Part shown: piece after piece, positions 119-40,271 of the stretch
Position numbering within the stretch: the first letter of the stretch is position 1
Layout: each line of letters starts with the position of its first letter
Assembly (NCBI GenBank): GCA_965203805.1
Contig: OZ241917.1
Location: forward strand, 2,592,001-2,656,000
Direction: 5' to 3'
Source: Candidatus Latescibacterota bacterium
GTDB taxonomy: Bacteria > Latescibacterota > UBA2968 > GCA-2709665
DNA length: 64,000 nt
The notes under the pieces: generated by a model
What the model was told of the DNA's origin: nothing
The model's input: the letters and a program-made list of their open reading frames with translations, nothing else
Databases searched by the model: none
Program-made: the position numbers and the translations under genes

Positions 119-368
119 TCCCCCCACCACCGTCGCCGGCCGTTCCACATTTCGACCCTTCGGCGGGCTTGCTTCGACAAGCTCAGCACAAGCAGGGGCC
201 GGCTCGGCTTCTGCCTGCCTGCCGCCTGCCTGCGCCGCTGCGCTTCCCGCGGCAGGCAGGCGCTCCGCTTGGCGCAGGCAGGCGACTCCCCTCAAGGGGG
301 GAGTGATTGCGACGTGAATGCGCGACAGCCGGTGTCGAATGCGTCCACAGGGTGACGTGATTGCGAGA
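119..368. repeat. Composite palindromic (REP-cluster-like) repeat, copy A; direct repeat with 1577-1794
   Basis: Core 195-312 is nearly identical to 1620-1738. Contains nested CCTGCCTGC..GCAGGCAGG hairpins (214-282, inner 225-260), a CTCCCC-TCAA-GGGGGGAG hairpin and a 23-bp TTCGACAAGCTCAG element (171-193). Confidence 0.85.
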
Positions 369-470
369 GGTCGCTAACGGGCTGAACATCGATCTCTACG
401 CCAACGGAGACATCGCAGGCCTCGACGTCGACGCTTCCCGGCGTCTTGACCATTCGACACTTGAGTCCAC
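363..470 (+). pseudogene. 3' fragment of a DUF2283 gene
   Basis: DNA gcgagaggtcgctaacgggctgaacatcgatctc... aligns by eye with the 3' half of the intact gene at 7045-7260; 5' half missing. Confidence 0.7.
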
Positions 471-573
471 TCCGAAAAGCCGCGTTTACATGGCCGGGAA
501 AAAGCGCTAAATTCGAAGTGTGACGAGGTTGCAAAGCCGGATTGATGATTGATCGCAAAAAAGCGAGGGAGCT

Positions 574-1500
574 ATGTTCGGAAGGAGTGCCCCTTCAAGT
601 CAGCCGGATCTGTTTTCCAGCTTCGAGTTGCATTTCAGCAGACGGAAGCAGGATCAGTTGAATGATCCGAAGTCGTGGCACAATCTGTTTTACGAACACG
701 TCACGTCAAAGGTCGATGAGGATCTGTACTCGGTGCTGCGCGATGCCAACGAGGACCGACCCGGTGCGCCGATTCGACAACTGGTGTCGATGTTGATCCT
801 GAAGGAGGGATTTGGATGGAACGATGCGCAACTGTTCGAGCATTGTCGATTCAACATCCTGGTGATGCGCGCATTGGGGATGATGAATCTATGCGATGAG
901 GCGCCTGCTGAGTCCAGGTATTATCGTTTCAAGCATGCTTTGTATGAGGTTCAACTGAAGACCGGCCGCGAACTGATTGGCGAGACGCTCTCGAGCTTAA
1001 CCAGGACGCAGGCCAGCGCCTTTGGTGTGTTGGATCGGCACGTCCGCATGGACAGTAAGTTGATCGGCTCGAACATTGTGCTTTGCTGCCGGCTGCACCT
1101 GGTGGCGCGATGCATGCGAGCGTTCTGGGAGTCGCTGGACAAGGACCAAAAGGGACGTTTGTCTTCGAAAAGACAGGTTTTGGACGGATTGCTCAAGGGG
1201 AAGCCCTATCAGGTTGTCTATGGTCTCAACCGCGTTGAAATGGGTGAGAAGCTGCAGGAATTCGGGCAGTTATTGCGCAGGCTTCAAGCGACCTATACCG
1301 AGAGCCACAGCGATCTATACGGCCTGATCGTGCGGGCTATGGCGGATCAGTATAACGTCCTATCGTCCTCCAAACAGGTGTTTCCGAAGCCCCCTCAAGA
1401 GATCTCCCCTTTCTCCCTGCAGGTTGCCGATGTTGACGCGGAGGCCGCTGTTCGATCCCGTGTGGCAAAATTAGAAGGTCTTTGGAGCCCGGATGGGTAG
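574..1500 (+). pseudogene. Truncated DDE transposase (IS5/IS1182-like, DUF772-type N-terminus)
   Basis: Motifs RPGAPIRQLVSMLILKE..W.DAQLFE...FN and RMDSKLIGSN; ends after an EIS..SLQ-like motif, before the expected C-terminal catalytic region. Confidence 0.65.
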
Positions 1501-1576
1501 CGTGATTGATGACACAGGAGACGTTGATGAACGAAAAGAAGCTCTCTAACCTGGCCGCCATCCGATAAGGCTTGAG

Positions 1577-1794
1577 CCCCCCACCGCATCAGCCGTCGCC
1601 GGCCCTTCGACAAGCTCAGGGGGCCGGCTCGGCTTCTGCCTGCCTGCCGCCTGCCTGCGCCGCTGCGCTTCCCGCGGCAGGCAGGCGCTCCGCTTGGCGC
1701 AGGCAGGCGACTCCCCCTCAAGGGGGGAGTGATTGCGATGTGAATGCGCGACAGCCGGTGTCGAATGCCTCCAAAGGGTGGCGTGATCGCGAGG
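1577..1794. repeat. Composite palindromic repeat, copy B
   Basis: Direct repeat of 119-368 with the same nested hairpins (1639-1707, inner 1650-1685). Confidence 0.85.
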
Positions 1795-1831
1795 TTTCGT
1801 TGATGCGGTAGTCAGAAAGAGAGGGAAGCCC

Positions 1832-2974
1832 ATGGATATCGAGGGGATTCGCGGCCAGATGCCGGGCCTGAAACACGGCGTTTACCTGAACACCGCCGGA
1901 ATCGGTCAGTCGCCGGTCTGCGTGAACGAAGCGGTCGCCGAGGGCTATCAGCAGTTGCGCAGCGGCAGCGTCAGTACGAGCGACTGGTACGACGCAATGT
2001 CCGAGGCCCAGGACGAATTGCCGGCCAAAATTGCCGGCTTCTTCGGCGCCGATGCAGGGGAAATCGCGCTGACGATGAGCACCGGAGAAGGTTACGGTAT
2101 GGTGCTCGGCGGGCTGCGGTGGCAACCGGGAGACGAGGTCCTCATTACCAATGAGGAACACCCGGTACCCCTTGAAGCCGCCCAGGGTGTGGCGGACCGG
2201 GAAGGAGCGATCGTCAAGGTGGTCGAAATCGACCAGGATAAAGACCTTTTCCTGGACCGGCTGGCGAATTCGATCACCCCGCGTACCCGGCTGATCTGTT
2301 TCAGCCATGTCACGACGGATTGGGGGACCCGGCTGCCCGCCCGCGAGGTCTGCGAGCTGGCGCGGGCCCGCGGCATTCTCACGCTCTGGGATGGCTGCCA
2401 GGCCATCGGGCAGTTTCCGGTGGACCTGCATGAAATCGGCTGCGACTTCTACGCCACCAATTGCTACAAGTGGATGCTTTCGCCGATGGGTACCGGATTC
2501 CTCTATGTCAGGAAAGGCGCGCAGCAAGTTTTGAAGCCGCTGCGGCGACCGCACGCCCCCGACGGTACGGCCCGGCAGTACGAGACCGGATCGCCGGCGC
2601 GCGCGCTCTACCTGGGTCTCGGCGCGGGTCTCGATTTTTTGGCCGGCATCGGCGGGCCGCGGGCCATCGCCGCGGAGGCGGGACCAAAGGCGGAATCGCT
2701 GCGCGATCGCTTCGACGCCATTCCCGGCGTGCGGGTCATCGGCTCACGCCGCGCCGAAACCCAAACCGGCACTGTCGCGTTCGCTGTCGAGGGCATGGAA
2801 GGGAACGAAGTCTCCGACGCACTCCGGAACCGCTGGCAAATCGCCCAACGGGCGACCAACATCAACAAACCCTCCGGTGTGCGGATTTCGGTGGCGTTCT
2901 ACACCACCGATTCGGAGCTGGATACCCTGGTCGAAGCGGTCACCACCCTGGCGGGCGAGACCGGGAATCGGTAA
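1832..2974 (+). CDS. Aminotransferase class V (cysteine desulfurase/isopenicillin N epimerase-like PLP enzyme)
   Basis: YLNTAG, SHV, DGCQAIG, NCYKWMLSPMGTG (PLP Lys); SD-like gaggga upstream. Confidence 0.85.
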   Translation: MDIEGIRGQMPGLKHGVYLNTAGIGQSPVCVNEAVAEGYQQLRSGSVSTSDWYDAMSEAQDELPAKIAGFFGADAGEIALTMSTGEGYGMVLGGLRWQPGDEVLITNEEHPVPLEAAQGVADREGAIVKVVEIDQDKDLFLDRLANSITPRTRLICFSHVTTDWGTRLPAREVCELARARGILTLWDGCQAIGQFPVDLHEIGCDFYATNCYKWMLSPMGTGFLYVRKGAQQVLKPLRRPHAPDGTARQYETGSPARALYLGLGAGLDFLAGIGGPRAIAAEAGPKAESLRDRFDAIPGVRVIGSRRAETQTGTVAFAVEGMEGNEVSDALRNRWQIAQRATNINKPSGVRISVAFYTTDSELDTLVEAVTTLAGETGNR

Positions 2975-3058
2975 CGGGCAAGAGGCTGAATCCTTTCTCC
3001 TTTGTAGCTGGCGCAGCCCGCCTGCACCCGTGTTCGATCCGGCTGACAGAATCTTCAC

Positions 3059-3165
3059 TTGATTCCAGGGTCCCTTTCCTGTAGATTGTCACGTCGCGGT
3101 CATTCGACAAACGGACGCTCTCATAACCGGCAATTGGACGCCATTGAAACCGACAAATGGACGCT
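3059..3165 (+). promoter_or_regulatory. Sigma70-like promoter plus three 23-bp-period direct repeats overlapping the start codon
   Basis: TTGATT-N17-TAGATT (3059-3087); units CGACAAACGGACGC, CGGCAATTGGACGC, CGACAAATGGACGC. Confidence 0.6.
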
Positions 3166-4404
3166 AACCGTTCCCTCTTTCCCCGCTCGCTGGCGCCCGT
3201 TCTTGGGGAGGCCCTGGCCGACACGCCGGTGGTCTGTCTGCTCGGACCGAGGCAAAGCGGGAAAACGACGCTCGTCCAGCAACTCGCGCCCGACCGCGCG
3301 TACGTCAGCCTGGACGATCACAACTATTATCAGACCGCCCGGACCGATCCCTCCGGCTTCGTCGCCAGCCTGCCGGACGCGGTGACCCTGGACGAGGTGC
3401 AAAGGGCGCCGCAACTGCTCCCCGCCATCAAGCGCGCCGTGGATCAGGACCGTCGTCCCGGTCGTTTCGTGCTGACCGGCTCGGCCAATCTGCTGCTGGC
3501 GCCAACGGTAACCGAATCCCTGGCCGGGCGGATGGAAACCGCGCAATTGCACCCGCTGACGGAATCCGAAAAAGAGCGCGCGCCGGGGCGCTTCCTCAGC
3601 GACCTGCTGAACGGCGCGATCAAGCCGGGCATCCGGCCCGAGGCGGCGGCTGAAGCGCCGTCGCTGCAGGACCGACTGGTCGCCGGCGGCTATCCCGAAC
3701 CGCTGACCCGCGCGCCCGTCCGCTCCCGGCAATGGCACCGGCAGTACCTGCGCAGCATTATCGATCGGGACGTGCGGGACGTGGCGCGGGTGAGAGATTC
3801 ACACGAACTGGGTCGCCTGTTGGAGCTGTTGGCCCTTCGCAGCGCCGGATTGTTGAACACCTGTAATCTGGCCAATGCCCTGGGCCTGCACCGGTCGACG
3901 GTAGATCACTACATCGCCGTCCTCGAACGCCTCTTTCTTGTGCGACGCCTTCCGGCGTGGCGCCGCAACCCGGCCAAACGGCTCATCAGAGCACCCAAGG
4001 TCCATCTCCTCGATAGCGGGCTGACTGCAACCCTCGCCAACCTGACCGCGTACGACTGGCTGGGCAGGCGGGACCAGATGGGGCATCTGCTGGAGTCCTT
4101 TGTCGTACAGCAACTCATTGCCCAGGCCGCCTGGACGGAACCGGATCTGCGTTTCTGGCACTATCGAGACAAGGACCGGGTGGAGGTCGACGTGGTCATT
4201 ACCCGGGGTCAAAAGACATGGGGCGTTGAAGTCAAGGCCGCCCGTGGGATCAGCTCCGGAGACGGGAAAGGGCTGATTCGGCTCGCTGATCGTTGCGGCA
4301 AGGATTTCGAGTGCGGCGTGCTGCTCTACGCCGGCCGCGATCGACTCCCGTTGGCCGACGAGCGCATACTCGCCGTGCCGCTGAGCGAATTGTGGGAGCG
4401 GTAG
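3157..4404 (+). CDS. AAA_14 ATPase with wHTH and DUF4143 (PD-(D/E)XK-like) domain
   Basis: Walker A GPRQSGKT, LDEVQ, TGS, LAGR, C-terminal EVD..GVEVK. Confidence 0.9.
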   Translation: MDANRSLFPRSLAPVLGEALADTPVVCLLGPRQSGKTTLVQQLAPDRAYVSLDDHNYYQTARTDPSGFVASLPDAVTLDEVQRAPQLLPAIKRAVDQDRRPGRFVLTGSANLLLAPTVTESLAGRMETAQLHPLTESEKERAPGRFLSDLLNGAIKPGIRPEAAAEAPSLQDRLVAGGYPEPLTRAPVRSRQWHRQYLRSIIDRDVRDVARVRDSHELGRLLELLALRSAGLLNTCNLANALGLHRSTVDHYIAVLERLFLVRRLPAWRRNPAKRLIRAPKVHLLDSGLTATLANLTAYDWLGRRDQMGHLLESFVVQQLIAQAAWTEPDLRFWHYRDKDRVEVDVVITRGQKTWGVEVKAARGISSGDGKGLIRLADRCGKDFECGVLLYAGRDRLPLADERILAVPLSELWER

Positions 4405-4454
4405 GGCGCCTGCCCTTCGGCGGTGTTGATCGACCTGGCAAACGGACTCGCCTC

Positions 4455-4600
4455 TTGATTGCGGCAACCAAATCTTGTAGATTAATGTCGCACACATTCG
4501 ACACGTGAGGACGATTAAAACCTACAATCAGACGCTCCATTGACCGACAATTAGACGCACATATAACCGACGAATGGACGCTCACCGATTCGGTTCCCCC
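4455..4600 (+). promoter_or_regulatory. Orphan paralogous promoter/repeat cassette with the first codons of a lost AAA_14-type gene
   Basis: TTGATT-N17-TAGATT (4455-4483), 3-4 units of CGACAA..GACGC at about 23-bp period, then ATGGACGCT (MDA..) as at 3157. Confidence 0.55.
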
Positions 4601-4703
4601 GGCAGTGCGGGGAGAAGACCTCCAGCCGCGAATGGAGGCCGCATTGGATTGTTACGGAAAGCCACTGCTGTCCAGGAACGAAGCCGATTTCAGGCAGGTG
4701 GGA

Positions 4704-4799
4704 CCCTTTGTGTTTTTGTGCCTTTTGTGGCAGATGTTTTTTCGCGGCAAACCGGAAGAGCAGAACAATAGCCACAAAAAGCACAGAAGGCACACAAGG
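4704..4799. repeat. Inverted pair of GCCACAAAA(A/G)GCAC-type repeats (third copy at 24958-24984)
   Basis: ccctttgtgtttttgtgccttttgtggc ... gccacaaaaagcacagaaggcacacaagg. Confidence 0.6.
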
Positions 4800-7044: not shown

Positions 7045-7260
7045 ATGAAACTCCATTACTATCCCGAAACCGATAGCCTGTACGTCGAGTTCAAATCCGG
7101 TCCGGGCACTGAAACGCGAGAGGTCGCCAACGGGCTGAACGTCGATCTCGACGCCAACGGAGACGTCGTAGGCTTCGATATCGACGCGGCTTCCAGGCGT
7201 CTTGACCTTTCCACGCTTGAAACGGAGGCGTTGCCGGTACGCGCGTACAAGATGGGCTGA
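7045..7260 (+). CDS. DUF2283 domain protein (putative antitoxin)
   Basis: MKLHYYPETDSLYVEF...DLDANGDVVGFDI; overlapped (ATGA) by a remnant partner-gene tail NAFFDRGF. Confidence 0.8.
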   Translation: MKLHYYPETDSLYVEFKSGPGTETREVANGLNVDLDANGDVVGFDIDAASRRLDLSTLETEALPVRAYKMG

Positions 7261-7303
7261 CGGTTGTACGACCACCGCTGATTGCTTACCCATGGAGTCC
7301 TCT

Positions 7304-8776
7304 ATGAAATCTGTTATTGACCTCCGTCCGTACGTCCTCATCTTGACGGGCGTTTTCCTGTGTCTGTCCGCCCTGCCCTGTGATGCGAACCCTGCAGGCC
7401 TGCCTGCGCCGAGTTCTCTGCCTCGCCTGCTTCAGCAGGCAGGTGCTCGGCAGGCAGGCGGACCCCGGTTGACCCTCGAGGCGTGTCTGAGGCAGGCGCT
7501 GGCCAACAACCGGCAACTGGCGGCGGCCGGATTCGCCGCCGAAAAGGCAAACTGGGACCGCCGGAACGCGTGGTCGCAGTTCGCGCCGAGGGTGAGCTTC
7601 AATACGGAGGTGACGCGGATTGACGAACAGACGCTGGCCGAGCGGGACTTTTCCAGGTACTTTCCACCCGAGATCCCCGTACCGCAAGTGGCGTTCCGGA
7701 CCTCGTACTATTCGTCGTTCCAGGCGCACGTCCCCATCTTCGACGCGGAACTGATCAACGGCGTTGCCGTGGCGACCACCGGACAGTCCGCGGCCGAACG
7801 GACTCGAGAGGCCATCCGCGATCAAATCCTCTATCAGGTCACCTTCGGGTACCTGGAAGTGCTGAAACGCCGCGCGACGCTCGAACTTCAGCGGGAATTC
7901 CTCGTCCTGACCGGCCTGAACGTCAAAAAAGCCGAGAGGATGCACCTTGCGGGGAGATATTCGAAGCTGGACCTGCTGCGGTGGCAGGTGGAACACCAGC
8001 AGCAGAAGAGCAGCGTGGCCGCGGGAGAGTCCGCCTTGCGCGATGCAACGGTTCGCTTGCGCCGGCTGCTCAACCTTCGCGCGCTGGAGACGGACGCGCT
8101 GGCGGACGCCGTCCCGGACGTTCTCAACGCGGAGGCCACGCGGCTGGCGAATTTGTCTGAAGGTGACATCCGGCGGCTGGCGGGCGTGGAGAACCGGACG
8201 CTGGTTGAAGGGAACGCAGTACTCGCAGCGGCGGAACGGGACCGGGAACGCAGCCGCCTGGTCTACCGGGGGCAGGTTTCGAGTTACCTGCCCGACGTCT
8301 CTCTCAGCTATTCGACGGCCTGGCGCAGAAACGATACGCCGGCGCTGGACGACTACAGACCCTCTACGGTCATGGTCAATCTGTCGGTTCCCCTGTTTAC
8401 GGGATTCCGAAACCTCTCGCGTCTGAAGTCGGCGCAATTCAGCTATCTGGCGCAGGATTCGCACTTCTCCGATCTGGTGGACGAGACCCGGCAGTCGCTT
8501 GGCGAGACGGTCAACCGGATCGTCAATCTGAAGAACCAGCGCGAACTGATCTCGACCAGCCTTGCGTTCAATGAAAACAACTATCGGATCGTCTCCCGGG
8601 AAAAGACGCTGGGGCGGGCATCGAATCTGGACGTCATCGATGCGAAGCTGAACCTGCAGAACGCCCGGCTGCTGGAGATCACAACGCGATTCGACCTCGC
8701 CTCAACGGCGGTCGAATTTCACTACCTGATGGGCAGCCTCGACGGTCTGGTCGAGGAAATGGCGGAGTCGGAATGA
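7304..8776 (+). CDS. TolC-family outer membrane efflux protein
   Basis: Signal-like N-terminus, LTLEACLRQALANN, VNLSVPLFTGF; GGAG SD before ATG 7304; first gene of an RND operon. Confidence 0.85.
   Translation: MKSVIDLRPYVLILTGVFLCLSALPCDANPAGLPAPSSLPRLLQQAGARQAGGPRLTLEACLRQALANNRQLAAAGFAAEKANWDRRNAWSQFAPRVSFNTEVTRIDEQTLAERDFSRYFPPEIPVPQVAFRTSYYSSFQAHVPIFDAELINGVAVATTGQSAAERTREAIRDQILYQVTFGYLEVLKRRATLELQREFLVLTGLNVKKAERMHLAGRYSKLDLLRWQVEHQQQKSSVAAGESALRDATVRLRRLLNLRALETDALADAVPDVLNAEATRLANLSEGDIRRLAGVENRTLVEGNAVLAAAERDRERSRLVYRGQVSSYLPDVSLSYSTAWRRNDTPALDDYRPSTVMVNLSVPLFTGFRNLSRLKSAQFSYLAQDSHFSDLVDETRQSLGETVNRIVNLKNQRELISTSLAFNENNYRIVSREKTLGRASNLDVIDAKLNLQNARLLEITTRFDLASTAVEFHYLMGSLDGLVEEMAESE
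7399..7458. mobile_element. Nested CCTGCCTGC micro-palindrome insertion (60 bp, in frame) in tolC
   Basis: CCTGCCTGCgccgag..[cctcgcctgc ttca gcaggcagg]..ctcgGCAGGCAGG; removal restores NPAGGPRLTLE. Confidence 0.75.
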
Positions 8777-12900: not shown

Positions 12901-13017
12901 CTTTTCGGCATGCTCGTGTCCACCGTGCTGACGTTATTCGTGATACCCTGCTTCATGGCTGTCCTGGACGATATCAAACGCGTGCGAAAAAAGGCGCGGT
13001 TGCGACCTGCTGCATAA
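9928..13017 (+). CDS. AcrB/AcrD/AcrF-family RND permease
   Basis: YPGASPEEVE, GIIVDDAIIVIEN, GIVVNDAIV, RLRPIILTS; 1029 aa. Confidence 0.95.
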   Translation: MSIVKFSVRNPVLVNLVMVGLLCFGGISLFSMPQEMNPQIDFNWVTVSIPYPGASPEEVESLIVVPIEAEIHDLNKIDELQSTADAGLALFLVKFEDMSESEFREVYTDLKGRIDRVELPDAAEDPEVDDFDSGDFLPVLTVNMAFTIPEENAQIVADDLEDDLKDISGVARVQVAGLPEREIWVEVDPSRLAARGLTVLDVVRAMQARNLNVSGGTLTYRAKEYAIRSLAEFRSVEEIRETIVRTAPRGETVRVRDVARVRDRREEPQVLSRLNGKPSITFSLSKKTDANTNDMILAVKETIRRYEERVPDGIGFTFTDDNSVYINRVIAALRNNAVTGMVLISLVLWLFLGSWNAFLATIGIPISFFITFILLGIFGYTINGSTLFAMVMVLGIIVDDAIIVIENCHRYRLQGHGAGEAAVLGAGEVTTPIISSVGTNIAAFLPLILLPGVMGKFMRIIPLTFALALAASVFEAFVLLPSHYAEWTRRSNAHKRGEQPFFRRLRRIYGRMLVRTLRRRYWVIGALVGVLIGALMILGRLPIDIYADDELDAFKVLIKFPEGTSLHESDRVTRAYEAEALRLSEADVEGVVVNVGLLQSNNEWLTRKSVSQVLVQLKPKEKRARMSDELMEMLRERTEHIEGPASVSFELFAGGPPEGKPISVKVQGRYLDRMKEAALVLQDSLRRIPGTLEVTDDFPPGKETIRIEVDEVRAALYGFSAQDVALNVRYAFDGVRATTFRDGDEEVGVIVQYDRANRSTVEDVLNVQVTNASGLTVALRDMVSFSIGPGRTKIKRFDRNRTIIVTGEIDEAVLTLDQINNRMLEIFPSIEAQYSDVSFHIGGEFTDFLEAFDNVAALFVVSLILMFLILGTQFNSYAQPLVILTSVPFAIIGALLGLLISGNPFSLISIFGFVALAGIVVNDAIVMVAFMNRRRRPGGSVTNVWRSIVNAGRLRLRPIILTSVTTISGLMPMAIGIGGKSALWSPLANVILFGMLVSTVLTLFVIPCFMAVLDDIKRVRKKARLRPAA

Positions 13018-13319
13018 TCGACCGGGGCAATCGCTCACGGTTGAACATTGGCTCGCGCTCTCGCCTTACTGTAAGGTATCGACGAAAATCGGAGGGATCG
13101 GTACAATCGAGCGCTCCACCCGGAGAAACACGGAACTATTCCAAAGCTTGTGATTCGTAGAACAACACATCCAATTGAGCTTGATTTGAAATAGCAATGT
13201 GCATTGTTGTGGAATTGTTTCTGTCCTGCTGAAACGTAGCTCGAAATAACGCCAATAGCGGAAAATTACATTGATGTAGAATCAAAAATGCGCGGCAACG
13301 ACGAAGGCGGGAGGTTCCA

Positions 13320-14315
13320 ATGAACAAACACGAATCCATACTATCAGTTCGATTCGATGGCACTGGAGTTGGCGCAGGTAGAATTCCTGTCTCTCATTTG
13401 CTACGATTTCTTTCCAATTTCAACAAGGTGCTTCATCGGACAGGCAGAGTGCTGCAGGGCGACACGGAAAGCTTGCGACGTGGCCAACCGCCTCAGCGCA
13501 TTGCATCTGAGGTTGAGCTTGAGTTGGTATCACTAACGCACGGAAGCCCAGCGGCGGTGTTGTCCTTCGATCGCGTACAGCAGCACCTCAACTTTCCAGA
13601 GATGGATTTTGGACTGCAAATCCTGGAAAGCGCCATCGGCGGACTCGAAACAGTCCAGCGGAAAAACGCCAATTACACGTTCCCGGAGGGATACGATACC
13701 GGTGTATTGATGGCTTGGCGTGACCTCGGAAAACTCTTCGGTCACGGTATCGAAAAGATCGAATTTACGTTGTCCCATTCACAGAAGCCAGTCCAGGCCT
13801 CCCTAACACCTGAAGGCGTTGCACACATCAAAGATAGGATTAAGGGACCTCAGGTAAACATCCGCGTAATCGAAGGGCGACTGTTGATGGCAGACTTCAA
13901 GGAGGACGGTACGCGATTCCGTGTGCATCCGTCAACTGGAGATCCGGTTCTTTGTCTGTTCGATGAAGAGCAAAAGGACGAAGTCTTGGAGAACATTCTG
14001 CAATACGTCCGCGTAGTTGGAGAGGCACGAGAAGATCCCGTGTCTCGAAAGATAGCGGAAATCAACATTCACGATATTGAGAGGCTGGATGAACTGCAAA
14101 ACGAAGCAACCGACCTACTGCCTCGCGGGACGCCAATTTCGCAGTCGTTTTGGAATTCGCCAACATTTCAGGAACTGGCGCGGACGCAGAACGTGCAGCC
14201 AATGGCAGACGTCAGGGTGCTGTTTGGTACCTGGCCGGACGACGAAGACGACGGCTTCGAGGCTTCAATTGACGAACTGCGACATCGTCGCGCCGAGACA
14301 GGTCCTTGGTCATGA
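13320..14315 (+). CDS. Hypothetical protein with C-terminal antitoxin-like acidic tail
   Basis: 331-aa lower-GC ORF with GGAGG SD; ATGA-coupled to the PIN gene. Confidence 0.7.
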   Translation: MNKHESILSVRFDGTGVGAGRIPVSHLLRFLSNFNKVLHRTGRVLQGDTESLRRGQPPQRIASEVELELVSLTHGSPAAVLSFDRVQQHLNFPEMDFGLQILESAIGGLETVQRKNANYTFPEGYDTGVLMAWRDLGKLFGHGIEKIEFTLSHSQKPVQASLTPEGVAHIKDRIKGPQVNIRVIEGRLLMADFKEDGTRFRVHPSTGDPVLCLFDEEQKDEVLENILQYVRVVGEAREDPVSRKIAEINIHDIERLDELQNEATDLLPRGTPISQSFWNSPTFQELARTQNVQPMADVRVLFGTWPDDEDDGFEASIDELRHRRAETGPWS

Positions 14316-14719
14316 GCGGATCCAGGGTCATTCTCGACACGAATATAGTTTCCTATCTGATGAAAGGTGGCCAGCTTGCTGCAGCATATGTGCCACATCT
14401 CCAAGGTCGGTTACTTGCAATCACTTTTGTTACTGTTGGAGAACTCTATTTCGGCGCGGAGAAACAAGGTTGGGGCGAAAAAAGACTAAGAACGCTTGAG
14501 ACCAACCTCCGTAACTTTGTGGTCATACCGTACGACTACGAGATTGCCCGGTGCTATGGCAAGGTGGTCGCGGAACGTCATCGCAAAGGACGACCGATTT
14601 CAGATAACGACGCATGGATAGCTGCCTGTACCGTAAGACATGGTATTCCATTGATTACACACAATGTAAAGGATTTTGAAAGCATTACTGCGCTTCAGTT
14701 AATCTCCGAGAATCGATAG
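14312..14719 (+). CDS. vapC: VapC-family PIN domain toxin
   Basis: ILDTNIVS, GELYFG, NDAWIAA, LITHNVKDF. Confidence 0.9.
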   Translation: MSGSRVILDTNIVSYLMKGGQLAAAYVPHLQGRLLAITFVTVGELYFGAEKQGWGEKRLRTLETNLRNFVVIPYDYEIARCYGKVVAERHRKGRPISDNDAWIAACTVRHGIPLITHNVKDFESITALQLISENR

Positions 14720-14823
14720 GCGCACTTGCGTCCTGTGTAACTTGTCGAGGGCGAACCGAGAGGCTACCGGGAGATTAACTCGCCGTTGTACGCCGACTGG
14801 CGCCTTACACAAAGGAGACTGGA

Positions 14824-15708: not shown

Positions 15709-16526
15709 TTCAGACTCAAAAGTGCCTCGCCATTCGGCCGACGACTTATCCCGTCGCTGGGTGTTGCTTGCGCTGCTTGCACTGAGCTTGCCGAAGCGGC
15801 TTGTCGAAGTGCCATCGCTGGACGACGTTGCTCAGGTCGCTTGTTGTCGGTCACAACCCCCTTTGGAACTAACCTCTTGGGGGACAAAGGCTTTATCTCT
15901 TCCACCAACTCTCATTTTCTCTTCGTCCTTTTTCTTGTACGCCCAAGAAAAAGGACCAAAAAGAACGGCGCCTGCCTGCCGAGCAGGCTTCGGCCTGTCT
16001 GCCGTTCCAACGGGACAGGCAGGCGCAGGCAGGCCGCTCGGCGCGGGGCCGGTTTTTCCGTGAACCACCTCAGTGGCGCAATTGGAATTTGGTTGCCCTT
16101 TCACCGAAACCGCCCATCCCGAACGATGTTGCTGGACGGAATAGCACGGAAAAACCCCTCCCTTCACCACCGTGCGGAGCGTAGGTCGTCCGGGGAGTTC
16201 ATCCTGGTGGATTCGCGTGGATCCGCCGATTGTATTTTGCTGTATGTTTTTCGGTCAAGCTGACAACTGTGGGCTGATTGCTGGTTCTGCTCCCCCTCTC
16301 CCCCCGGGAGAGGGGGCCGGGGGGAGAGGTTTGCGGGGCTGAGGGTGGTTCGCTCTCGGCTGAACGCCGACCGCTGATAGCTGTTTTTCGATGGCAGGGA
16401 ATTTGGGGAAAAGGGGATTTTGAACTTGATCTTGGATTTTGGTTCAAGCTGACTGCTGATGGCTGAACGCTGATCGCTGCTTTTCTCCAGCCGAATTCAA
16501 GCGAACTATCTCCGGGACAGAACACT
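15707..16526. mobile_element. Non-coding ~820-bp MITE-like element, copy 1 (left end degenerate)
   Basis: Colinear with 56391-57231 over ~550 bp and again at the right end (GGGACAGAACACT); carries nested palindromes, a CCCCTCTCCC..GGGAGAGGGG hairpin and GCTGANN heptamers (16448-16479). Confidence 0.7.
15971..16033. mobile_element. Nested micro-palindrome insertion (33 + 30 bp)
   Basis: Absent at the homologous site 56632/56633 (aagaacggcg|ccgctcggcg); no duplication of flanks. Confidence 0.85.
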
Positions 16527-19822: not shown

Positions 19823-20087
19823 AGGGGCAGTCGAAAGGGGTGGACCAGAGTTAGGGTGGCGGAGGTGATTCCCCCTCAAGGGGGAGCGATGTCGATGTTC
19901 TGCCGGTCAGGTCGAGCACGGTTCCAGACGTTCAGGCACTATCCGGGGCGACAGGAGATACTTCCTCAGCCTGGAGGCTTCCTTAATCGGTCTCCAGGCC
20001 GGCAGAACGAAATCGAGGCAGGCAGGCCCCACCTTCACAACGGCTTCCTCAGCGTCTCCTTCTTACCGTGATTCCCCCTGCCCTTTG

Positions 20088-34708: not shown

Positions 34709-35626
34709 GTGCTGATCCAGAGTCTGAAGATCTTTTGCGACCTCATCGATACCCAGAGTTTTTCGAAGACGGCCGTTCTCAATGGCGTTACGCAATCCGC
34801 GGTCAGCCAACAGATCAAAAGCATCGAAAATCGCCAGGGCAAACCGTTGTTGGAACGGCATAAACGCAAGATCGGTCTCACAAAAGAGGGCGAGGTGTTT
34901 TACAAGGGCGCCGGCGACATTGTCAGGCGTTACGATGAGATGTTACAACGCGTGGAGGCTCTGGACGGCGTGGTTTCGGGCACGGTTCGCCTCTCGGCGA
35001 TTTACAGTGTGGGCATGCGTGAACTCGGACCCTACCTCAAGACCTACCTCAAAGCCTACCCGAAGGTCAACTTCCGCCTGGCCTACAACCACACCCCGCG
35101 GATCTACGACGACGTTGCCAGCGGCGAGATCGACTTCGGCGTGGTCGCCTTCCCCAGGCCCCACCGCAATATCAAGATCATCCCATTCTCCGAAGACAAC
35201 ATGGTGGTGGCATGCCCGCCCTCGAATCCACTTGCAGCGCGAGACCACATGGCCGTCAACGACATCAGCGATCATCCGCTGATTCTCTTCTCCCAGGAGA
35301 CCCACACCCGGCATGCGCTCGACCAGTTCTTCCGCAAACACCGGATTCAACCCAACATTGTCATGGAATTCGATCATATCGATACCATAAAGGACGCCGT
35401 CGAAGTCGACCTCGGCATCTCGATTCTGCCTGAACACTCGGTTGACCTGGAACACAAGGAAGGCAGCCTGAAAGCGCTCACCATCAAGGGCGACGTGCTA
35501 ACCAGACCCCTGGGCATCCTGCACAAACGTGGCCGCAGCCTTTCGGTGGCCGCCCGAAAACTCCTCGACGTGCTCAAGAACGGGAAAGCCCCGGCCGGCG
35601 AGTCGCAGGCGTCTGCCGCCGGATAG
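34709..35626 (+). CDS. LysR-family transcriptional regulator, divergent from fumC
   Basis: SFSKTA..VTQSAVSQQIKSIE HTH; AT-rich intergenic segment 34520-34590. Confidence 0.93.
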   Translation: MLIQSLKIFCDLIDTQSFSKTAVLNGVTQSAVSQQIKSIENRQGKPLLERHKRKIGLTKEGEVFYKGAGDIVRRYDEMLQRVEALDGVVSGTVRLSAIYSVGMRELGPYLKTYLKAYPKVNFRLAYNHTPRIYDDVASGEIDFGVVAFPRPHRNIKIIPFSEDNMVVACPPSNPLAARDHMAVNDISDHPLILFSQETHTRHALDQFFRKHRIQPNIVMEFDHIDTIKDAVEVDLGISILPEHSVDLEHKEGSLKALTIKGDVLTRPLGILHKRGRSLSVAARKLLDVLKNGKAPAGESQASAAG

Positions 35627-35742
35627 GCTCCGATCGGGCGTCTGCCGGACCGGTTTGCGCCATCGGGCCGATTCCGGCTTCTCCTTCCCGCAATCAACGA
35701 ACATTCGCGTCAGGACTCACCGGCGGAAGCCGCTTCGAAACG

Positions 35743-36447
35743 TCACGCTGCACGGCCGTCGCCCGCGACCATCTCCTGAATCAGGAATCGAAGGAACCGG
35801 ACGCCCGTCCGGAAAGAAGGCGCTTTCGATTCTCCGCCGACCCGGTTTCCCTCCCACGTAGGAATCTCCTCGATCCGCATTCGTTGTTTCATCGCACGGA
35901 TCGTCATTTCGTATTCGATCGTATACCCCGTCGATGCGGGATTGAGCCTCAGGAATGCTTCCCGCGTAACCCCTCGAAACCCGTTGATGGTGTCCGTCAC
36001 GTACGATCCCCGATTCCAGAGTTGGTTGGCAATCCGCGTAAACATCTGGTTCGTCCACTTTCGCAGCGGCAGCGCGTCGTCGTCCTCCTCGTTCCGGGAG
36101 CCCGGCAGGAACCTGGACGCAATCACCATATCGGCGCCGTTTTCGATCGCGGTGAATAGCCCGGGGATGTCCTCCGGGTCTTCATTGCCGTCGGGACTGA
36201 AGAAAACCAGGCTCTCGCCTTTCGACGCCCGGACCGCCGCGCGAAACGCCTCGCCCCTCCCCGGGCGTTGCTGGTCCACCAGCCGGATCTGACGGGACGC
36301 CAGAACCTCCCGGGTACCATCCGTGGACCCGCCGTCCACGGCGAACACTTCGTCGGCCATCCGGGACAGATCCGGGCCGGCTGAGAACAGCCAGCGTACG
36401 CCGTCGACCTCATCGAGGGTAAGTAGAACAAGCGTCCGTCTTGCCAT
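35743..36447 (-). CDS. Glycosyltransferase family 2
   Basis: VDGGSTDGT, GRGEAFR, SPDGNEDP, TDTINGFR. Confidence 0.88.
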   Translation of the reverse strand: MARRTLVLLTLDEVDGVRWLFSAGPDLSRMADEVFAVDGGSTDGTREVLASRQIRLVDQQRPGRGEAFRAAVRASKGESLVFFSPDGNEDPEDIPGLFTAIENGADMVIASRFLPGSRNEEDDDALPLRKWTNQMFTRIANQLWNRGSYVTDTINGFRGVTREAFLRLNPASTGYTIEYEMTIRAMKQRMRIEEIPTWEGNRVGGESKAPSFRTGVRFLRFLIQEMVAGDGRAA

Positions 36448-36462
36448 CGTCCACCCCGGACT

Positions 36463-36524
36463 CTGAGCCGCTCCCTGACCCTGCCTGCAATGAGCTTGTC
36501 GAAATGTCGAAGGGTCGGCGAAGG
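36463..36524. repeat. REP-like palindrome carrying an extra 23-bp insertion (36483-36505)
   Basis: Near-identical to 17898-17936 plus gcctgcaatgagcttgtcgaaat. Confidence 0.75.
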
Positions 36525-36584
36525 AATGTCGTCGATTGACACGGAACGAAAAGCGAAACGCGAGGAACGCGGCGAGCCGGGACA

Positions 36585-37793
36585 CTAGGCCCGTCCGCCC
36601 TTGAAGAAACGATCGAACAGTTCCACGATACGATCCAGGTCGGCCAATGTGAGGTCCTGGTGGCAACCGATGTAGAATCCGCTCCGGTTGATCCACCCGG
36701 CAACGGGGTAATCCGCCTCGCCGATGCCCAGCAGACGCTGGTAGAGCGGCTGATTGGTCAGCGGGAGCATCTCCCGCGTCTCAACCCCGTTCTGTTCCAG
36801 GAAATCCACCAATGCGTCCTTTTTCCGGTCCCTCAGGACAATCGGATACATCATGAATGAATGTTCGCACCCCGGTCGAATCCGGGGAAGCTGCACAGAC
36901 GCTTCGTGTCCGGACAGACACCGGGTCAGATAGGCGGCATGCTTCCGCCGGCTGGAGATCATCTCTGTCGCGACCTCAAGCTGCGCCAGCCCGAGAGCGG
37001 CCTCCATCTCGGTCAATCGGAAACTGTAGCCGAGACTGACGAAAGAGAATCGCCGGGCGACGATCTCACGCAGTTCCTCCGGCGGTTTCCTGTCGTCGTC
37101 ATCTATATTCAGGTACGTCGAATCCCGCCCGTGGTTGATCAGCGATCTCAGCTTTTGCGCATAGCCGGGATCGTCGGTCGTATTCAATCCGCCCACGCCC
37201 GTTGTGAGCAGGTGCGCCGCATACGTGGAAAAACACCCGATTTCGCCGAGACTTCCGACGCTGCGGCCCTTGTATCCCGCGAACATGGTCTCGGCCGAAT
37301 CTTCGATGACCCGAAGGCCGTGCCCCCGCGCAAGTTCGAGGACTGGATCCATGTCGCACGGTTGTCCGAAGACGTGGACGGGAATGATCGCCCTGGTGCG
37401 AGGCGTGACCGCGGCCTCGATCCTTTCCGGGTCCAACTCGTAGTGGCGTGGGTCGACGTCCACCAGCACCGGACGCATCCGTCCGTGGAAGACGATATTT
37501 GCCGTACCCGCGAACGTCACCGCGGGCAGGATCACTTCGTCCCCGTCATCCCAGCCATGCAGTTCCTTCAGCGCGGCCAGAGCGACCAGCAGGGCGCTCG
37601 TCCCGCTGTTGCTCATCACGCCGAACCGACACCCGTGGGCGCGTGCGAATCCGGCCTCGAACGCCTGTGTCATCGGGCCGTAAGACAGCCGGTTGCTGTC
37701 CAGGACCTGGTTTACCAGCGCCCGGGCCCGTGGACTGACGTTCATCGTACCGACGCCGATTACGGGCGGCCGGTGATCACGATCTTCCGACAC
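36585..37793 (-). CDS. DegT-family enzyme with His in place of the PLP Lys (ColD-like 3-dehydratase candidate)
   Basis: IEDSAE, CFSTYAAHLLTTGVGG. Confidence 0.75.
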   Translation of the reverse strand: MSEDRDHRPPVIGVGTMNVSPRARALVNQVLDSNRLSYGPMTQAFEAGFARAHGCRFGVMSNSGTSALLVALAALKELHGWDDGDEVILPAVTFAGTANIVFHGRMRPVLVDVDPRHYELDPERIEAAVTPRTRAIIPVHVFGQPCDMDPVLELARGHGLRVIEDSAETMFAGYKGRSVGSLGEIGCFSTYAAHLLTTGVGGLNTTDDPGYAQKLRSLINHGRDSTYLNIDDDDRKPPEELREIVARRFSFVSLGYSFRLTEMEAALGLAQLEVATEMISSRRKHAAYLTRCLSGHEASVQLPRIRPGCEHSFMMYPIVLRDRKKDALVDFLEQNGVETREMLPLTNQPLYQRLLGIGEADYPVAGWINRSGFYIGCHQDLTLADLDRIVELFDRFFKGGRA

Positions 37794-37806
37794 TTCGAAC
37801 CCGCTT

Positions 37807-38763
37807 TCAAGCCTTCGAAGATTCGCAGGAAGGCTGCTTCTCAACCCACGAAATCATGCGGCGAAGCCCTTCCTCCAGAGTCGTTGCGGCCTCAAATCCG
37901 AAATGCCGCTTCGCCCGCGTCACGTCCACGCACCGCCGCGGCTGCCCGTTCGGCCGGGTCGTATCCCAACGAACCCGCCCGGCGAATCCCGTCAGGCCGC
38001 GGATCTTCCCTGCGAGGTCGCGGATTGAGATCTCCACTCCCGATCCCAGGTTGACCGGTTCGGGCAGATCGTAACGTTGAGACGCGAGCAATACGCCCTC
38101 TGCGGCGTCCTCGACGTACAGAAACTCGCGCGTGGGCGACCCGTCTCCCCACAGGGTGACGTGACCGCGTCCGAGATTCCGGGCATCCACGAACTTTCGC
38201 ACCATGGACGCGAGTCCGTGGGACGTCTCCGGATCCAGGTTTTCTCCCGGTCCATAGAGGTTGGAAAGAAGCAGATGAATCGCGTTGTAGCCGTATTCCG
38301 CCCGGTAGGCCTGGCTCTGCACCAGCATCATTTTCTTGGCCAGGCCATAGGCCGCGTTCGTCTCTTCCGGATACCCGTCCCACAGGTTCTCCTCCCTGAA
38401 GGGGACCGGCGTGGACTTCGGATAGGCGCATACCGATCCGATCCCCACGAACTTGGGCACCTCGAACCTGCGGGCGCCTTCCATCAGGTGCGCGCCCATG
38501 GCCAGATTGTCGTAGAAAAAACGGCCCGGATACCGCTGATTGGCGCCAATGCCGCCAACGGAACCCGCCAGGTGAATCACCAGGTCGGGCCGCGTCGTCT
38601 CATACAGGCGGCGTACGTCTTCCTGTTCCCGCAGGTCGTAGTCCCGGCTGCGCGGCGCGAATACCCGACGGCAGCCCCGATCGCGCAGTTTCCGCACGAC
38701 GTGCCTGCCCAGAAAACCCGCGCCGCCGGTCACCGCAACCCTTTTGTCGGTCCAGAAACCCAT
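37807..38763 (-). CDS. GDP-L-fucose synthase family (Fcl/ColC-like)
   Basis: TGGAGFLG, VGGIGAN, SVCAYPK, YGLAK, WGDGSPTREFLY. Confidence 0.9.
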   Translation of the reverse strand: MGFWTDKRVAVTGGAGFLGRHVVRKLRDRGCRRVFAPRSRDYDLREQEDVRRLYETTRPDLVIHLAGSVGGIGANQRYPGRFFYDNLAMGAHLMEGARRFEVPKFVGIGSVCAYPKSTPVPFREENLWDGYPEETNAAYGLAKKMMLVQSQAYRAEYGYNAIHLLLSNLYGPGENLDPETSHGLASMVRKFVDARNLGRGHVTLWGDGSPTREFLYVEDAAEGVLLASQRYDLPEPVNLGSGVEISIRDLAGKIRGLTGFAGRVRWDTTRPNGQPRRCVDVTRAKRHFGFEAATTLEEGLRRMISWVEKQPSCESSKA

Positions 38764-38961
38764 GCCGCGGTCCTCGCCGTCTTCCGATGGTTCCGTCGGG
38801 GAAAGGTCCTCTACCAAGTACCGGAACACCACGCACAGAATGGCCGAATAATTGGCGAGACTAAGGCCTTGGGAGCCATTGCGATGGTCCATTCAATCGA
38901 AAGCTGCACCCATCACCTTTTGCGGTTGGCGACTAAAGCCTCTGCGGGGTCATTTCGTCAA

Positions 38962-40271
38962 GGAACCTCTGATCAACCAGAGGGAATGAGCAAGTTGTAA
39001 CTTATGGGTCGTTTCGGAGGCTGTTTATGTTGAGAGGGTCGTCATCTTTCGGGTTTGCACGGGTGATTCCGGCCCCGGATGCGCTCGGTGCCGGCCATTT
39101 TGGCCGCCAGCGTCCGAATTGGAGGCACGGGTGCCTATGTAGTAGCCAGTTCCTGACGTGCCATATGGAAGTTAGCCAAGGCAAACAAGGTGAACAGATG
39201 CGCCGTATTCTTCGCCAGACCGCGATACCTGACCTTTCGGTAGCCCCACAGGTGTTTGATGATCCCAAAGGGATGTTCCCTGTCTGCGTGCGTGAGACAG
39301 CACGCACAGGCAGGGACCCGTGCGCGCGTGCGATTGCTCTTCTTGTTGAACGAAACATCCGCGCAGTTGAGCCGCTTGCCCCGGCGGGCCTTGCGAAGCA
39401 CTCGCCATTCCACGTCGTTGGCTTCGGCCCGTTCTTTTCGCGTCTGATCCGCATAGGCCTTGTCGCCGTAGATGGTCTTTTCTTTTCCGTGCAGACAGGC
39501 ATCCATCGCCTGCGAATCATGCACCGAAGCGGGGGTGGTCACCACACTGTGCACCCGTCCCTTCACATCCGCGCCCACGTGCGCCTTCATGCCGAAATGC
39601 CACGTGTTGCCCTTCTTCGTGCTGGCCATTTCAGGATCCCGTTTCCGATCCTTGTTCTTCGTCGAAGAAGGCGCGTGAATGATCGTGGCATCCACGATCG
39701 TGCCTTCGTTCACGATCAATCCCCGCCTGGACAAGTAGCGCTTCGTTTGCCGAAACAACGCTTCCGTCAACCCATGGTGCTCCAGAAAGTGACGGAATTT
39801 GCAGATCGTCGTCTCATCAGGTACGCCGTTGATGTTCACACCCGCAAAGCCCTGCCTGCAGCAGGCAGGGACGCATCGACTCCACGTCGTAGAGACTGTC
39901 TTCCATTCCCGGATCGCTCAATCCATACCATTGTTGCATAAAGTAGATACGCAGCATCACCTCCGCACCGATCGGACGACCTGCCTGCGCCGACTCGGCA
40001 GGCAGGCGACCGTTGCCAGGTTTCGGATACTTCCTCTCAATCGATTTAAGCAGTATCTCCCACGGCAACACCGCATCCATCTCTTTCAGAAAACGTTCCC
40101 TGCGCGTCTGCTTCTTCTTCGTCCTGTACGCCAGATCCGAAAAACTCATTTGTTTCATCCCTGGGCCCCTCGTTCTATGTCGATCCATCAGAAATCACAA
40201 CACGACGGCTCACGCTCCAATTCTACGACTTTCTGCATGGCGTGCCAATAGGTAACTTAATCAGAGCTTCC
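38962..40271 (-). mobile_element. IS5-family element, complete with TIRs and 4-bp TSD
   Basis: TIR GGAA(C/G)CTCTGAT(C/T)AA at both ends; TCAA duplicated at 38958-38961 and 40272-40275. Confidence 0.9.
39135..40158 (-). pseudogene. IS5 transposase interrupted by three micro-palindromes (39279-39314, 39851-39869, 39980-40006)
   Basis: TRRERFL, PDETT, IVDATII, WHFGMKAH, GDKAY; the 19-bp insert causes the frameshift. Confidence 0.9.

Follow-up and report, generated by a model that had tools for sequence, protein, structure and literature searches.

Short hairpins inserted without target duplication in a Latescibacterota genome share their ends with hairpins in other phyla and viral contigs

The window, the whole 64-kb stretch of a Latescibacterota genome (G000) that was analysed here, carries 27 matches to the motif CCTGYCTGY. 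The mean expectation from 100 shuffled sequences was 1.29, with a maximum of 5, and none of the shuffles reached 27. All hairpin copies listed in a first-pass annotation of this DNA were found at their coordinates (Table 1) and, as it had also claimed, elements lie inside other copies, with three composite types present in the window. In the composite that begins at 214, the nested 36-mer follows base 11 of the outer 33-mer, at a G|C step. The pair beginning at 7399, initially parsed as 23 + 37 bp, was reparsed as 33 + 27 bp. The IS5 transposase gene, which has five identical copies in the genome, is split into ORFs at 39817-40188 and 39135-39839 that overlap at the 19-mer. An Rfam search of the window returned a tRNA at 61894-61977 as its sole match, and the hairpins matched no Rfam family at the gathering score. 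We agree with the earlier remark that the window encodes no mobiliser.

Table 1 Hairpin copies and host features in the window.
Feature	Position	Strand	Description
Composite hairpin	214..282		Outer 33-mer (214-224 + 261-282) with nested 36-mer (225-260)
Composite hairpin, second copy	1639..1707		Same 69-bp 33 + 36 composite as 214-282, within a duplicated host repeat
Composite hairpin	7399..7458		33-mer with nested 27-mer, 60 bp, 20 codons; in frame, near the N-terminus of the OEP gene
OEP host gene (TolC-like outer-membrane efflux protein)	7202..8776	+	PF02321, E = 2.3e-47
Composite hairpin	15971..16033		33-mer (15971-15993 + 16024-16033) with nested 30-mer (15994-16023); in a multi-copy intergenic repeat
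Empty-site paralogue of the 15971 host repeat	56403..56869	+	Empty near 56632
36-mer, CCTGTCTGC...ACAGGCAGG variant	39279..39314		In frame within the IS5 transposase gene
Minimal 19-mer	39851..39869		Within the IS5 gene; reading frame shifted
27-mer	39980..40006		In frame within the IS5 gene
IS5-family transposase host gene	39135..40188	-	DUF772 + DDE_Tnp_1; split into two ORFs

Each element is a single imperfect hairpin of 16-41 bp, whose conserved ends, CCTGYCTGY and RCAGRCAGG, pair to form an outer stem of 7-9 bp. The variable core is usually built from a 2-nt bulge, a 4-7-bp inner stem and a 3-6-nt loop; the shortest forms consist of the two ends alone, and the end-to-end spacing ranges from 0 to about 23 nt. 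In the predicted folds, the outer stem, 2-nt bulge and inner stem recur over unrelated cores.

Searching the whole genome with a regular expression yielded 240 hairpin matches in 185 loci. The preferred lengths are 33, 30, 27 and 36 bp, and a length divisible by three was found for 147 of the 240 matches and for 143 of the 188 un-nested copies, which bears out the initial observation that most units are 3n even in intergenic DNA. Only 36 of the 185 loci fall in predicted coding DNA and 149 (~80%) lie outside it, compared with 69% of random positions called coding by the same classifier, a crude codon log-odds score. Loci inside genes (26 of 36) and outside them (90 of 149) show an equally strong 3n excess, which in this genome therefore reflects preferred size classes and not selection for frame. 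The first-pass statement that insertions mostly preserve the frame is right in that most lengths are 3n, but the 19-bp copy breaks the IS5 frame and few of the loci are coding at all. Among the 23 of 26 distinct spanning ORFs that were searched against Pfam, the three lowest-scoring having been omitted, host genes with an assigned family were nearly all transposases. The accompanying proposal that the elements add peptides to proteins is clear for one ordinary gene, OEP (+20 codons), and is weaker for IMS and GH20b.

Paralogous repeats within the genome allowed filled and empty sites to be compared directly. We collected 39 unique filled/empty events, after prior exclusion of 23 of the 84 gap events as other repeats, alternative alignments or elements with one shortened end. 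All 39 are exact and lack a target duplication; their lengths are 33 bp (18 events), 30 (8), 27 (4), 21 (3), 19 (2), 36 (2), 20 (1) and 41 (1). G precedes the insert in 35 of the 39 and C follows it in 34, and these flanking bases account for the boundary ambiguity of 0-4 bases. The 15971-16033 composite likewise has empty paralogues, one of them near 56632 in the window, where genomic blocks 2648403-2648634 and 2648632-2648869 join across the site. Contigs that skip from 15969 to 16033 were present in all four sequencing runs, although this is a repeat and paralogues may be their source. In an independent lineage, the first 400 kb of the gammaproteobacterial chromosome G042 contains over a dozen exact 19-bp events with zero ambiguity.

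Related genomes gave the same picture at orthologous sites, and the elements have moved recently. In G012, a relative with 95% identity, three of the four G000 loci for which both flanks are present are empty; these correspond to the sites at 214-282, 1639-1707 and 7399-7458, none with a target duplication, and the orthologue of the first reads CTTCTG|CGACTCC. The IS5 copies in G002 and G013 lack all three inserts, with exact junctions, and the copy in G007 contains the 36-mer at 39279-39314 and lacks the 19-mer at 39851-39869 and the 27-mer at 39980-40006. The OEP site is empty in nine of ten aligned relatives, the ten being drawn from 14 after L149, L150, L151 and L156 were excluded for want of a BLAST hit to the left flank. 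Since these nine are empty at 82-95% identity, the filled state is derived. At the 7399-7458 site G007 has a different 30-bp element, and the site is also empty in contigs from two other runs, X8 and X3, which connect 7393 to 7454. Insertion without target-site duplication, as first proposed, was thus upheld at the three IS5 sites, at 15971 compared with 56632, and in further paralogous and orthologous alleles; empty alleles in relatives, which the first-pass annotation had suggested looking for, were found in G012, in G002 and G013 for IS5, and at the OEP site. A sequencing or assembly artefact was ruled out by the presence of the elements in the independent run X1 assembly, by their occurrence in short-read MAGs and in isolates (as labelled in database records), and by polymorphism between related genomes that is consistent with the tree.

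The insertion point is a purine|pyrimidine step, which in this genome is G|C. When elements were oriented, G occupied position -1 in 27 of 29 cases and C position +1 in 25 of 29; in other genomes R|Y alone is seen. We also considered the folding of target sites and the orientation of the elements. Restored sites in G000 had a mean fold energy of -18.7 kcal/mol versus -15.7 at random sites (p = 0.046), restored and random sites in G042 did not differ (p = 0.38), and predicted loops held no excess of insertion points. The impression, gained from individual cases, that hairpins are favoured as targets was dropped, the effect being weak in G000 and absent in G042. Orientation by replichore (24/27 versus 50/33, p = 0.15, with noisy GC-skew borders and many copies riding in duplicated repeats) showed no significant bias and gives no support to lagging-strand single-strand targeting.

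Copy numbers range from 0 to 170 over 41 relatives; G000 and G001 have 120 and 170 copies, G012 and G003 have 14 and 7. In a collinear 0.5 Mb G012 has one copy compared with 27 loci in G000. The hairpins record recent genomic change between 95%-identical strains. What is new is that common termini occur across unrelated phyla and viral contigs. Among the matches listed in GTDB-wide and viral scans, a 20-bp perfect palindrome is dispersed in CPR, Bacteroidota and viral contigs, and the same ends were found in Flavobacteriia, Chitinophagaceae, one WWE3 genome and viral contigs. A control pattern with reversed termini gave zero matches in every genome searched. The element thus extends beyond this lineage, a scope that the first-pass annotation had understated. 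The G042 chromosome has 662 copies compared with 0-7 in 40 of its relatives, and the identical ends in unrelated phyla and viral contigs raise a testable question, namely what gene varies in step with copy number. An exchange of DNA between G042 and G000 in recent times was rejected, as only housekeeping-level similarity (65-74%) was detected over the first 400 kb of G042. A 43-base query around a 33-mer retrieved only chance-level matches (E >= 0.6) from GenBank phages and PLSDB plasmids. In the viral contigs, among the matches listed, 3n forms lie within ORFs at about the random rate.

We propose, with a probability of roughly 0.6, that these are non-autonomous, ultra-small mobile hairpins of 16-41 bp that are mobilised in trans and resemble REPs and SDRs but are distinct from both. 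The data above show insertion itself, with its exact ends, missing target duplication, nesting, recency and reach across phyla; a folded-DNA mechanism and a trans-acting enzyme are what we infer. Conservation is limited to the paired ends, which lie anywhere from 0 to about 23 nt apart; the element would accordingly be recognised while folded, be it as a cruciform or as single-stranded DNA, at the outer stem's foot. Excision or copying-out would occur at this foot, and the product would be joined, without target duplication, into a new purine|pyrimidine site (G|C in this genome). Any DNA may be open as a target, whether a different repeat, an IS gene, an ordinary gene or another copy, and the last of these would lead to nesting. 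Composites could then move or be exchanged as units. A dedicated enzyme, if one moves the hairpins, would recognise a 9-bp stem and insert it precisely without duplicating the target, and would be of interest both to mobile-DNA biology and to tool building.

The search for such a mobiliser centred on RAYT-like genes, which exist in this genome and its family. GGGGCRGACATTCCTGTCTGCC repeats, a different REP, border the type A gene, and in both G000 and G001 the type B gene stands between GGCAGGGATGCC palindromes, a further REP; at type D loci the terminus motif was not found. Hence no RAYT-like gene at type A, B or D loci is flanked by these hairpins in the manner of a cognate REP, the arrangement that the first-pass annotation had suggested searching for. 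In G000 the stop codon of type B is followed 6 bp further on by a hairpin, and another hairpin sits at the type C domain's left edge. The former is absent from G001 and G013 and is a recent insertion. Within the family, the ten genomes with a type B, C or D gene have 7-170 copies and the other 12 have 0-10, in a grouping that was made after seeing the data and among mutually related genomes. G015 has 116 copies without types B and C; G042, with its 662 copies, has neither a PF01797 match nor a type B protein match, and neither was matched in G044. For the mobiliser in this family of genomes, our foremost candidate is a RAYT-like HUH tyrosine transposase, a doubtful one that is contradicted by one genome. 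The 249 terminus pairs spaced 0.4-4 kb apart included no larger autonomous element with the same ends, and only IS-internal segments recurred among them. RusA cuts 5' of CC; a RusA-type junction resolvase (PF05866) was rejected, being present in 9 of 41 relatives, mostly in an element-free family, and not in G000.

These observations also bear on whether the hairpins are ordinary, lineage-bound REPs whose cognate enzyme is the type B, C or D RAYT-like tyrosine transposase. REPs (Bertels and Rainey 2011, PMC3116915) are multicopy, mostly extragenic imperfect palindromes 20-40 bp long, whose movement is attributed to a single-copy HUH tyrosine transposase acting in trans. The hairpins share the short imperfect palindrome, the repetition and the mostly extragenic location (149 of 185 loci), and they fit in size; RAYT-like genes are at hand in the genome, types B, C and D roughly track copy number within the family, and hairpins adjoin two of these genes in G000. 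However, the REP/REPIN mobile unit is a doublet, whereas the filled/empty events here are single hairpins of 19-41 bp with no REPIN doublets. A RAYT is normally flanked by its own inverted REPs, but those of this lineage are flanked by others, and the copy adjacent to type B is missing from G001 and G013. REPs are inherited vertically and bound to a lineage together with their RAYT, in contrast to hairpins that cross phyla, with identical ends in other phyla and viral contigs among the matches listed, and that also enter genes and their own copies. No RAYT was detected in the 662-copy G042. We regard this explanation as unlikely.

Alternatively, there might be no dedicated transposase, and general host processes might spread a self-folding oligonucleotide or palindrome, whether by blunt ligation of hairpins at nicks or gaps, by switching of templates where forks stall, or by recombination and gene conversion via the 9-bp ends. 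Occurrence across phyla with no common gene found so far would suit such a process, as would the minimal target specificity (purine|pyrimidine only) and the differing cores at one site in paralogues and orthologues, which resemble exchange via common ends. Against it, one exact 9-bp end is kept across phyla while the reversed control is zero, which argues for a sequence-specific protein, and copy numbers are burst-like and lineage-specific. We know of no described host pathway of this kind, and consider the explanation very unlikely. That the hairpins are immobile functional stem-loops (terminators or binding sites), with the empty sites as precise palindrome deletions, is close to refuted: palindromes are prone to precise deletion and many copies lie just 3' of genes or in hairpin-rich intergenic DNA, but others lie within transposase genes, the OEP gene and one another, identical units recur in many unrelated contexts, and the filled OEP state is derived, nine of ten aligned relatives being empty.

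The mobile hairpins we propose can be set against other small elements. The SDRs of heterocyst-forming cyanobacteria, said to have been described by Elhai et al. in 2008, are reportedly 21-27 nt long, partly hairpin-forming and mutually nested, with no known mobiliser. Like the hairpins, they are very short and precisely inserted; the sequences appear to differ. The passages on SDR5 in Elhai (PMC4390886) place its insertion precisely after HIP1's third nucleotide and before its fourth. This target is 8 bp long, whereas the hairpins prefer only purine|pyrimidine, and SDRs were reported from one cyanobacterial group, in contrast to hairpin ends found in several phyla and viral contigs. No match to the terminus strings was found in the main texts of the literature searched.

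IS200/IS605 elements make no target duplication and require hairpin DNA at their ends. Their miniature derivatives (HUH Y1) share with the hairpins the lack of a target-site duplication, but they have distinct left and right ends, whereas here the two ends pair together; their insertions fall 3' of a set four- or five-nucleotide sequence, whereas here only R|Y flanks are seen; and they show a strand bias, whereas no significant replichore bias was found here (p = 0.15, with noisy borders). Rickettsia palindromic elements, which measure about 100-150 bp and are restricted to a single genus, survive as in-frame additions to ORFs. Some of the hairpins are likewise palindromic and persist in ORFs in frame, but at 16-41 bp they are smaller, and in this genome they are mostly non-coding. 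Terminal inverted repeats, non-autonomy and high copy number are common to the hairpins and classical (DDE) MITEs. In contrast to the hairpins, which are far shorter and lack a duplication even in events with zero ambiguity, MITEs have a TSD of fixed length, and they derive from a parent IS, whereas no IS with such ends was present among the 249 terminus pairs.

A broader version of the proposal is that one family with universal ends (CCTGCCTGC...GCAGGCAGG) circulates in many phyla and viruses as the smallest cross-phylum mobile DNA. Its mover would be an undescribed, widespread strand-transferase, or else a universal host activity, able to recognise the 9-bp stem that the element's own ends form, and its 3n classes (27, 30, 33 and 36 bp) would have been shaped by survival in coding sequence, especially in gene-dense phage genomes. 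We hold this to be possible, at somewhat less than even odds. The insertions also affect annotation, since they add 9-20 codons, break frames and create spurious peptide motifs. Short-read assemblies are fragmented by the hairpins, and contigs were seen to break at the elements.

The first-pass annotation had described short hairpins in the window as candidate micro-mobile elements that insert without target-site duplication, nest and mostly preserve the reading frame. Direct reading of the sequence confirmed every window copy it listed, each being a hairpin with the left end CCTGYCTGY and the right end RCAGRCAGG, and identified nested composites at four window loci. Counting both strands, the window contains 27 matches to the left-end motif, against a mean of 1.29 in dinucleotide-preserving shuffles, none of which reached 27. 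The window covers bases 2,592,001-2,656,000 of a single contig of 5,865,457 bp (59% G+C). Across this genome (G000), a regular-expression search for two ends at most 40 bp apart returned 240 matches, and both ends were present at 185 loci. The cores are numerous and different, while the ends are common to all. The predicted folds follow one design: the paired ends form a 7-9-bp outer stem, and a 2-nt bulge usually separates this from a 4-7-bp inner stem, which a small loop closes. The shortest hairpins (19-21 bp) comprise scarcely more than the two ends. No hairpin matched an Rfam family.

Locations of hairpin composites, host repeats and RAYT-like genes (G000, genome of the window; L-numbers, extracted loci)
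Feature	Location	Detail	Basis
Composite	window 214-282	36-mer within 33-mer	sequence reading
Composite, duplicate of 214-282	window 1639-1707	36-mer within 33-mer	sequence reading
Composite	window 7399-7458	27-mer within 33-mer	sequence reading
Composite	window 15971-16033	30-mer within 33-mer	sequence reading
Three single hairpins	within IS5 transposase gene of window	36, 19 and 27 bp	sequence reading
REP GTGAGGGTGGGGCRGACATTCCTGTCTGCC, examples	window 20010-20050; L188 500-2800		
CGCAGACCTCTCCCCCC / GGGGGGAGAGGTCTGCG repeat, examples	G000 3269328, 3336023, 3655589		
Type B RAYT gene region	L001 450-2420 = G000 4532760-4534730	between ~530-bp direct repeats, 81% identical; arrangement also in relative G001	
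Type C ORF, 1235 aa	G000 4546977-4550684 (L163 1978-5685)	DUF1156, D12-class adenine methyltransferase signature and RAYT-like Y1 domain (residues ~240-420)	

The hairpins are insertions with exact ends that nest and leave no target duplication. Aligning each G000 locus with its 250-bp flanks to the rest of the genome yielded 84 gap events, 61 of which could be placed as exactly CCTG...CAGG and represent 39 unique insertions; the other 23 were excluded because they were different repeats, alternative alignments or copies shortened at one end. G precedes the insert in 35 of the 39 unique events and C follows it in 34, and because of these flanking bases gap placement is ambiguous by 1-4 bases. 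One event has zero ambiguity and others lack one of these two bases, which excludes a fixed target duplication.

Comparison with relatives bore this out and revealed recent bursts of insertion. In relative G012, 400 kb of sequence runs collinearly with 0.5 Mb of G000 (aligned blocks ~88-96% identical, mostly 90-95%) and contains one hairpin, against 27 loci in G000; both flanks could be found in G012 for only four of these loci, three being cleanly empty and one holding a decayed single copy opposite a G000 composite. All three window inserts are missing, with exact junctions, from the IS5 copies of relatives G002 and G013, and the IS5 of G007 shares the 36-mer and carries its own extra 27-bp palindromic insert, with divergent ends, at a different site. 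A TolC-like efflux gene (PF02321) carries the 60-bp composite of 7399-7458 in frame. This site is empty in nine of ten aligned relatives, four more having been left out for want of an alignable left flank, and G007 has another 30-bp element at the same position. Contigs from two other public sequencing runs connect 7393 directly to 7454, and the run containing 98% of the words sampled from the stretch covers the element. At several sites, paralogues or orthologues carry different cores, reflecting either repeated hits or the swapping of a resident element via the shared ends.

Two further features of the window were recorded. The two identical composites of 69 bp, at 214-282 and 1639-1707, bracket an ORF of 308 aa (574-1500) that has a DUF772 transposase domain, and the matching empty sites in G012 are ~10 kb apart. 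At 13005-14806, contigs of three public runs (X3, X5 and X8) link 13004 to 14807 with 27 other letters replacing 1802 bp; this segment varies between strains and has no connection with the hairpins.

The claim of frame preservation stood only in part. Lengths divisible by three characterize 143 of 188 un-nested G000 copies; counted by distinct sequence the figure is 50 of 70, and by subfamily 17 of 29. Only 36 of the 185 loci were called coding, however, by a crude codon-bias classifier that marks 69% of random positions as coding, and the share of such lengths is alike within genes (26/36) and outside them (90/149). G000 hairpins therefore behave mainly as extragenic repeats, and the excess reflects preferred size classes. 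The 19-mer in the IS5 gene likewise speaks against preservation, dividing it into two overlapping ORFs. Some support came from viral contigs, which, at least among the matches listed, also carry hairpins, with lengths peaking again at 27, 30, 33 and 36 bp. Among the matches listed, once the element was removed, 46 of 61 copies with lengths divisible by three lay in a frame open for ≥150 nt on both sides; this held for 21 of 41 19/20-mers, for 13 of 24 copies of other lengths and for 79% of positions chosen at random. In G000, Pfam families were assigned to 12 of 23 submitted hairpin-spanning ORFs: ten transposases, one IMS polymerase and one weak GH20b match. In one viral contig, 20-mers are placed immediately after stop codons.

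Several repeated sequences in G000 serve as hosts. The IS5-family element at window 39000-40272 and at four other sites is present in five 100%-identical copies, all carrying all three inserts, the frame-breaking 19-mer included. The classical REP family GTGAGGGTGGGGCRGACATTCCTGTCTGCC, given as GGGGCRGACATTCCTGTCTGCC where it flanks type A genes (see below), has ~50 copies, often with hairpins inserted at GGGG|CAGACA, and its stem resembles the hairpin ends. Each arm of a second palindromic repeat, CGCAGACCTCTCCCCCC / GGGGGGAGAGGTCTGCG, occurs ~36-38 times, often with a hairpin at the centre; some of these are short of one CAGG unit at the right end.

The observation of a hairpin mobile element thus proved real, and its reach is wider than first reported. 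Among 41 relatives, counts of hairpins with strict ends range from 0 to 170; high counts occur in three genera, all from one family, and hairpins are almost absent from the sister family. Hairpins also occur across phyla. Scanning one genome per species with the strict pattern identified at least 120 stretches. For uniform base composition, rough arithmetic puts the chance matches expected across the whole collection below 10 for each spacer length. Among the matches listed, 66 are a perfect 20-bp palindrome, formed by the two ends with an added CG, and another 24 are 19-mers; record titles place them in CPR groups, Bacteroidota (including isolates), Omnitrophota, Gammaproteobacteria, Planctomycetota and others. 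Whole-genome counts reached 662, mostly 19-mers, in a gammaproteobacterial chromosome (G042), seven in a Flagellimonas MAG, six in a Chitinophagaceae MAG, three in a 0.9-Mb WWE3 genome and two in a Winogradskyella isolate; a reversed control pattern gave zero matches in every genome counted. Copy numbers in 40 relatives of G042 range from 0 to 7, and some of these genomes share an identical 27-mer with G000. Comparing paralogues across the first 400 kb of G042 identified more than 12 exact 19-bp insertions with zero ambiguity, and hairpins avoid ORFs (5/62 versus 52% of random positions). A purine before and a pyrimidine after the element are favoured at the flanks of G042 copies and of 20-mers. 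In two Patescibacteria records (L028 4019-4075 and L053 3616-3680), the 20-bp palindrome lies within partial tRNA copies adjoining intact tRNA genes.

We infer a mechanism from the sole conserved part, two 9-bp arms that pair together across a spacing of 0 to ~23 nt. A dimeric protein that reads duplex sites a fixed distance apart does not fit such variable spacing, whereas recognition of a folded stem does. The element would be recognized by this stem and, in the scenario we favour, would move as a single strand folded on itself or as a cruciform, with a trans-acting enzyme cutting and joining at the stem foot. The leading candidate, as yet unproven, is an HUH tyrosine enzyme; it is also possible that the spread originates in a host process.

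Four classes of RAYT-like genes (Y1_Tnp, PF01797) were considered as mobilisers. Y1_Tnp has two matches in G000. The 201-aa type B gene is flanked, in G000 and G001 alike, by arrays of a different palindrome, GGCAGGGATGCC; a hairpin lies 6 bp past its stop codon in G000 and is missing from G001 and G013. In the type C ORF, a 27-mer hairpin marks the left edge of the RAYT-like domain, and a domain 81-82% identical to it lies in comparable long open frames of G008, G011 (two copies) and G016; a transposase-like domain fixed within a methylase is unusual. The type A gene, absent from G000, is flanked by inverted GGGGCRGACATTCCTGTCTGCC / GTGAGGGTGGGGCRGACATTCCTGTCTGCC REP copies in G002, G005, G006 and G019, which share its genus, and type D genes (G015, G007 and others) have no terminus motif nearby. 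Within the family, copy numbers are 7-170 in the ten genomes where a gene of type B, C or D was recognized and 0-10 in the remaining 12, a grouping made after the fact among genomes related to one another. G042 matched neither the Pfam model nor the type B protein despite its 662 copies, which counts against a RAYT-like mobiliser. RusA was rejected, as it does not co-occur with the hairpins. No larger element bounded by hairpin ends was found among 249 terminus pairs 0.4-4 kb apart, and hairpin orientation showed no significant replichore bias relative to noisy borders drawn from GC skew.

The hairpins belong to a known kind, the ultra-small palindromic mobile repeats, among which their cross-phylum reach is unusual. 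Closest in behaviour are cyanobacterial small dispersed repeats, one of which inserts precisely within HIP1 (PMC4390886). REP/REPIN-RAYT systems (PMC3116915) are alike in size, structure and presumed trans-mobilisation, but three of their defining features did not hold for the hairpins when tested: a RAYT flanked by its own REPs, a doublet as the mobile unit and lineage-bound inheritance. The terminus strings and the 19/20-mers had no match in searchable article texts, a search that ~1.7 million articles and supplements fall outside; nothing closer was found in the literature searched, and an earlier description is possible.

A further G000 repeat, GTTTCAATCCTTGTTCTGATGGAAGATTCTCTCTGAG, joined by eye from overlapping top 14-mers into 37 bases, occurs ~64-68 times and is probably a CRISPR repeat.
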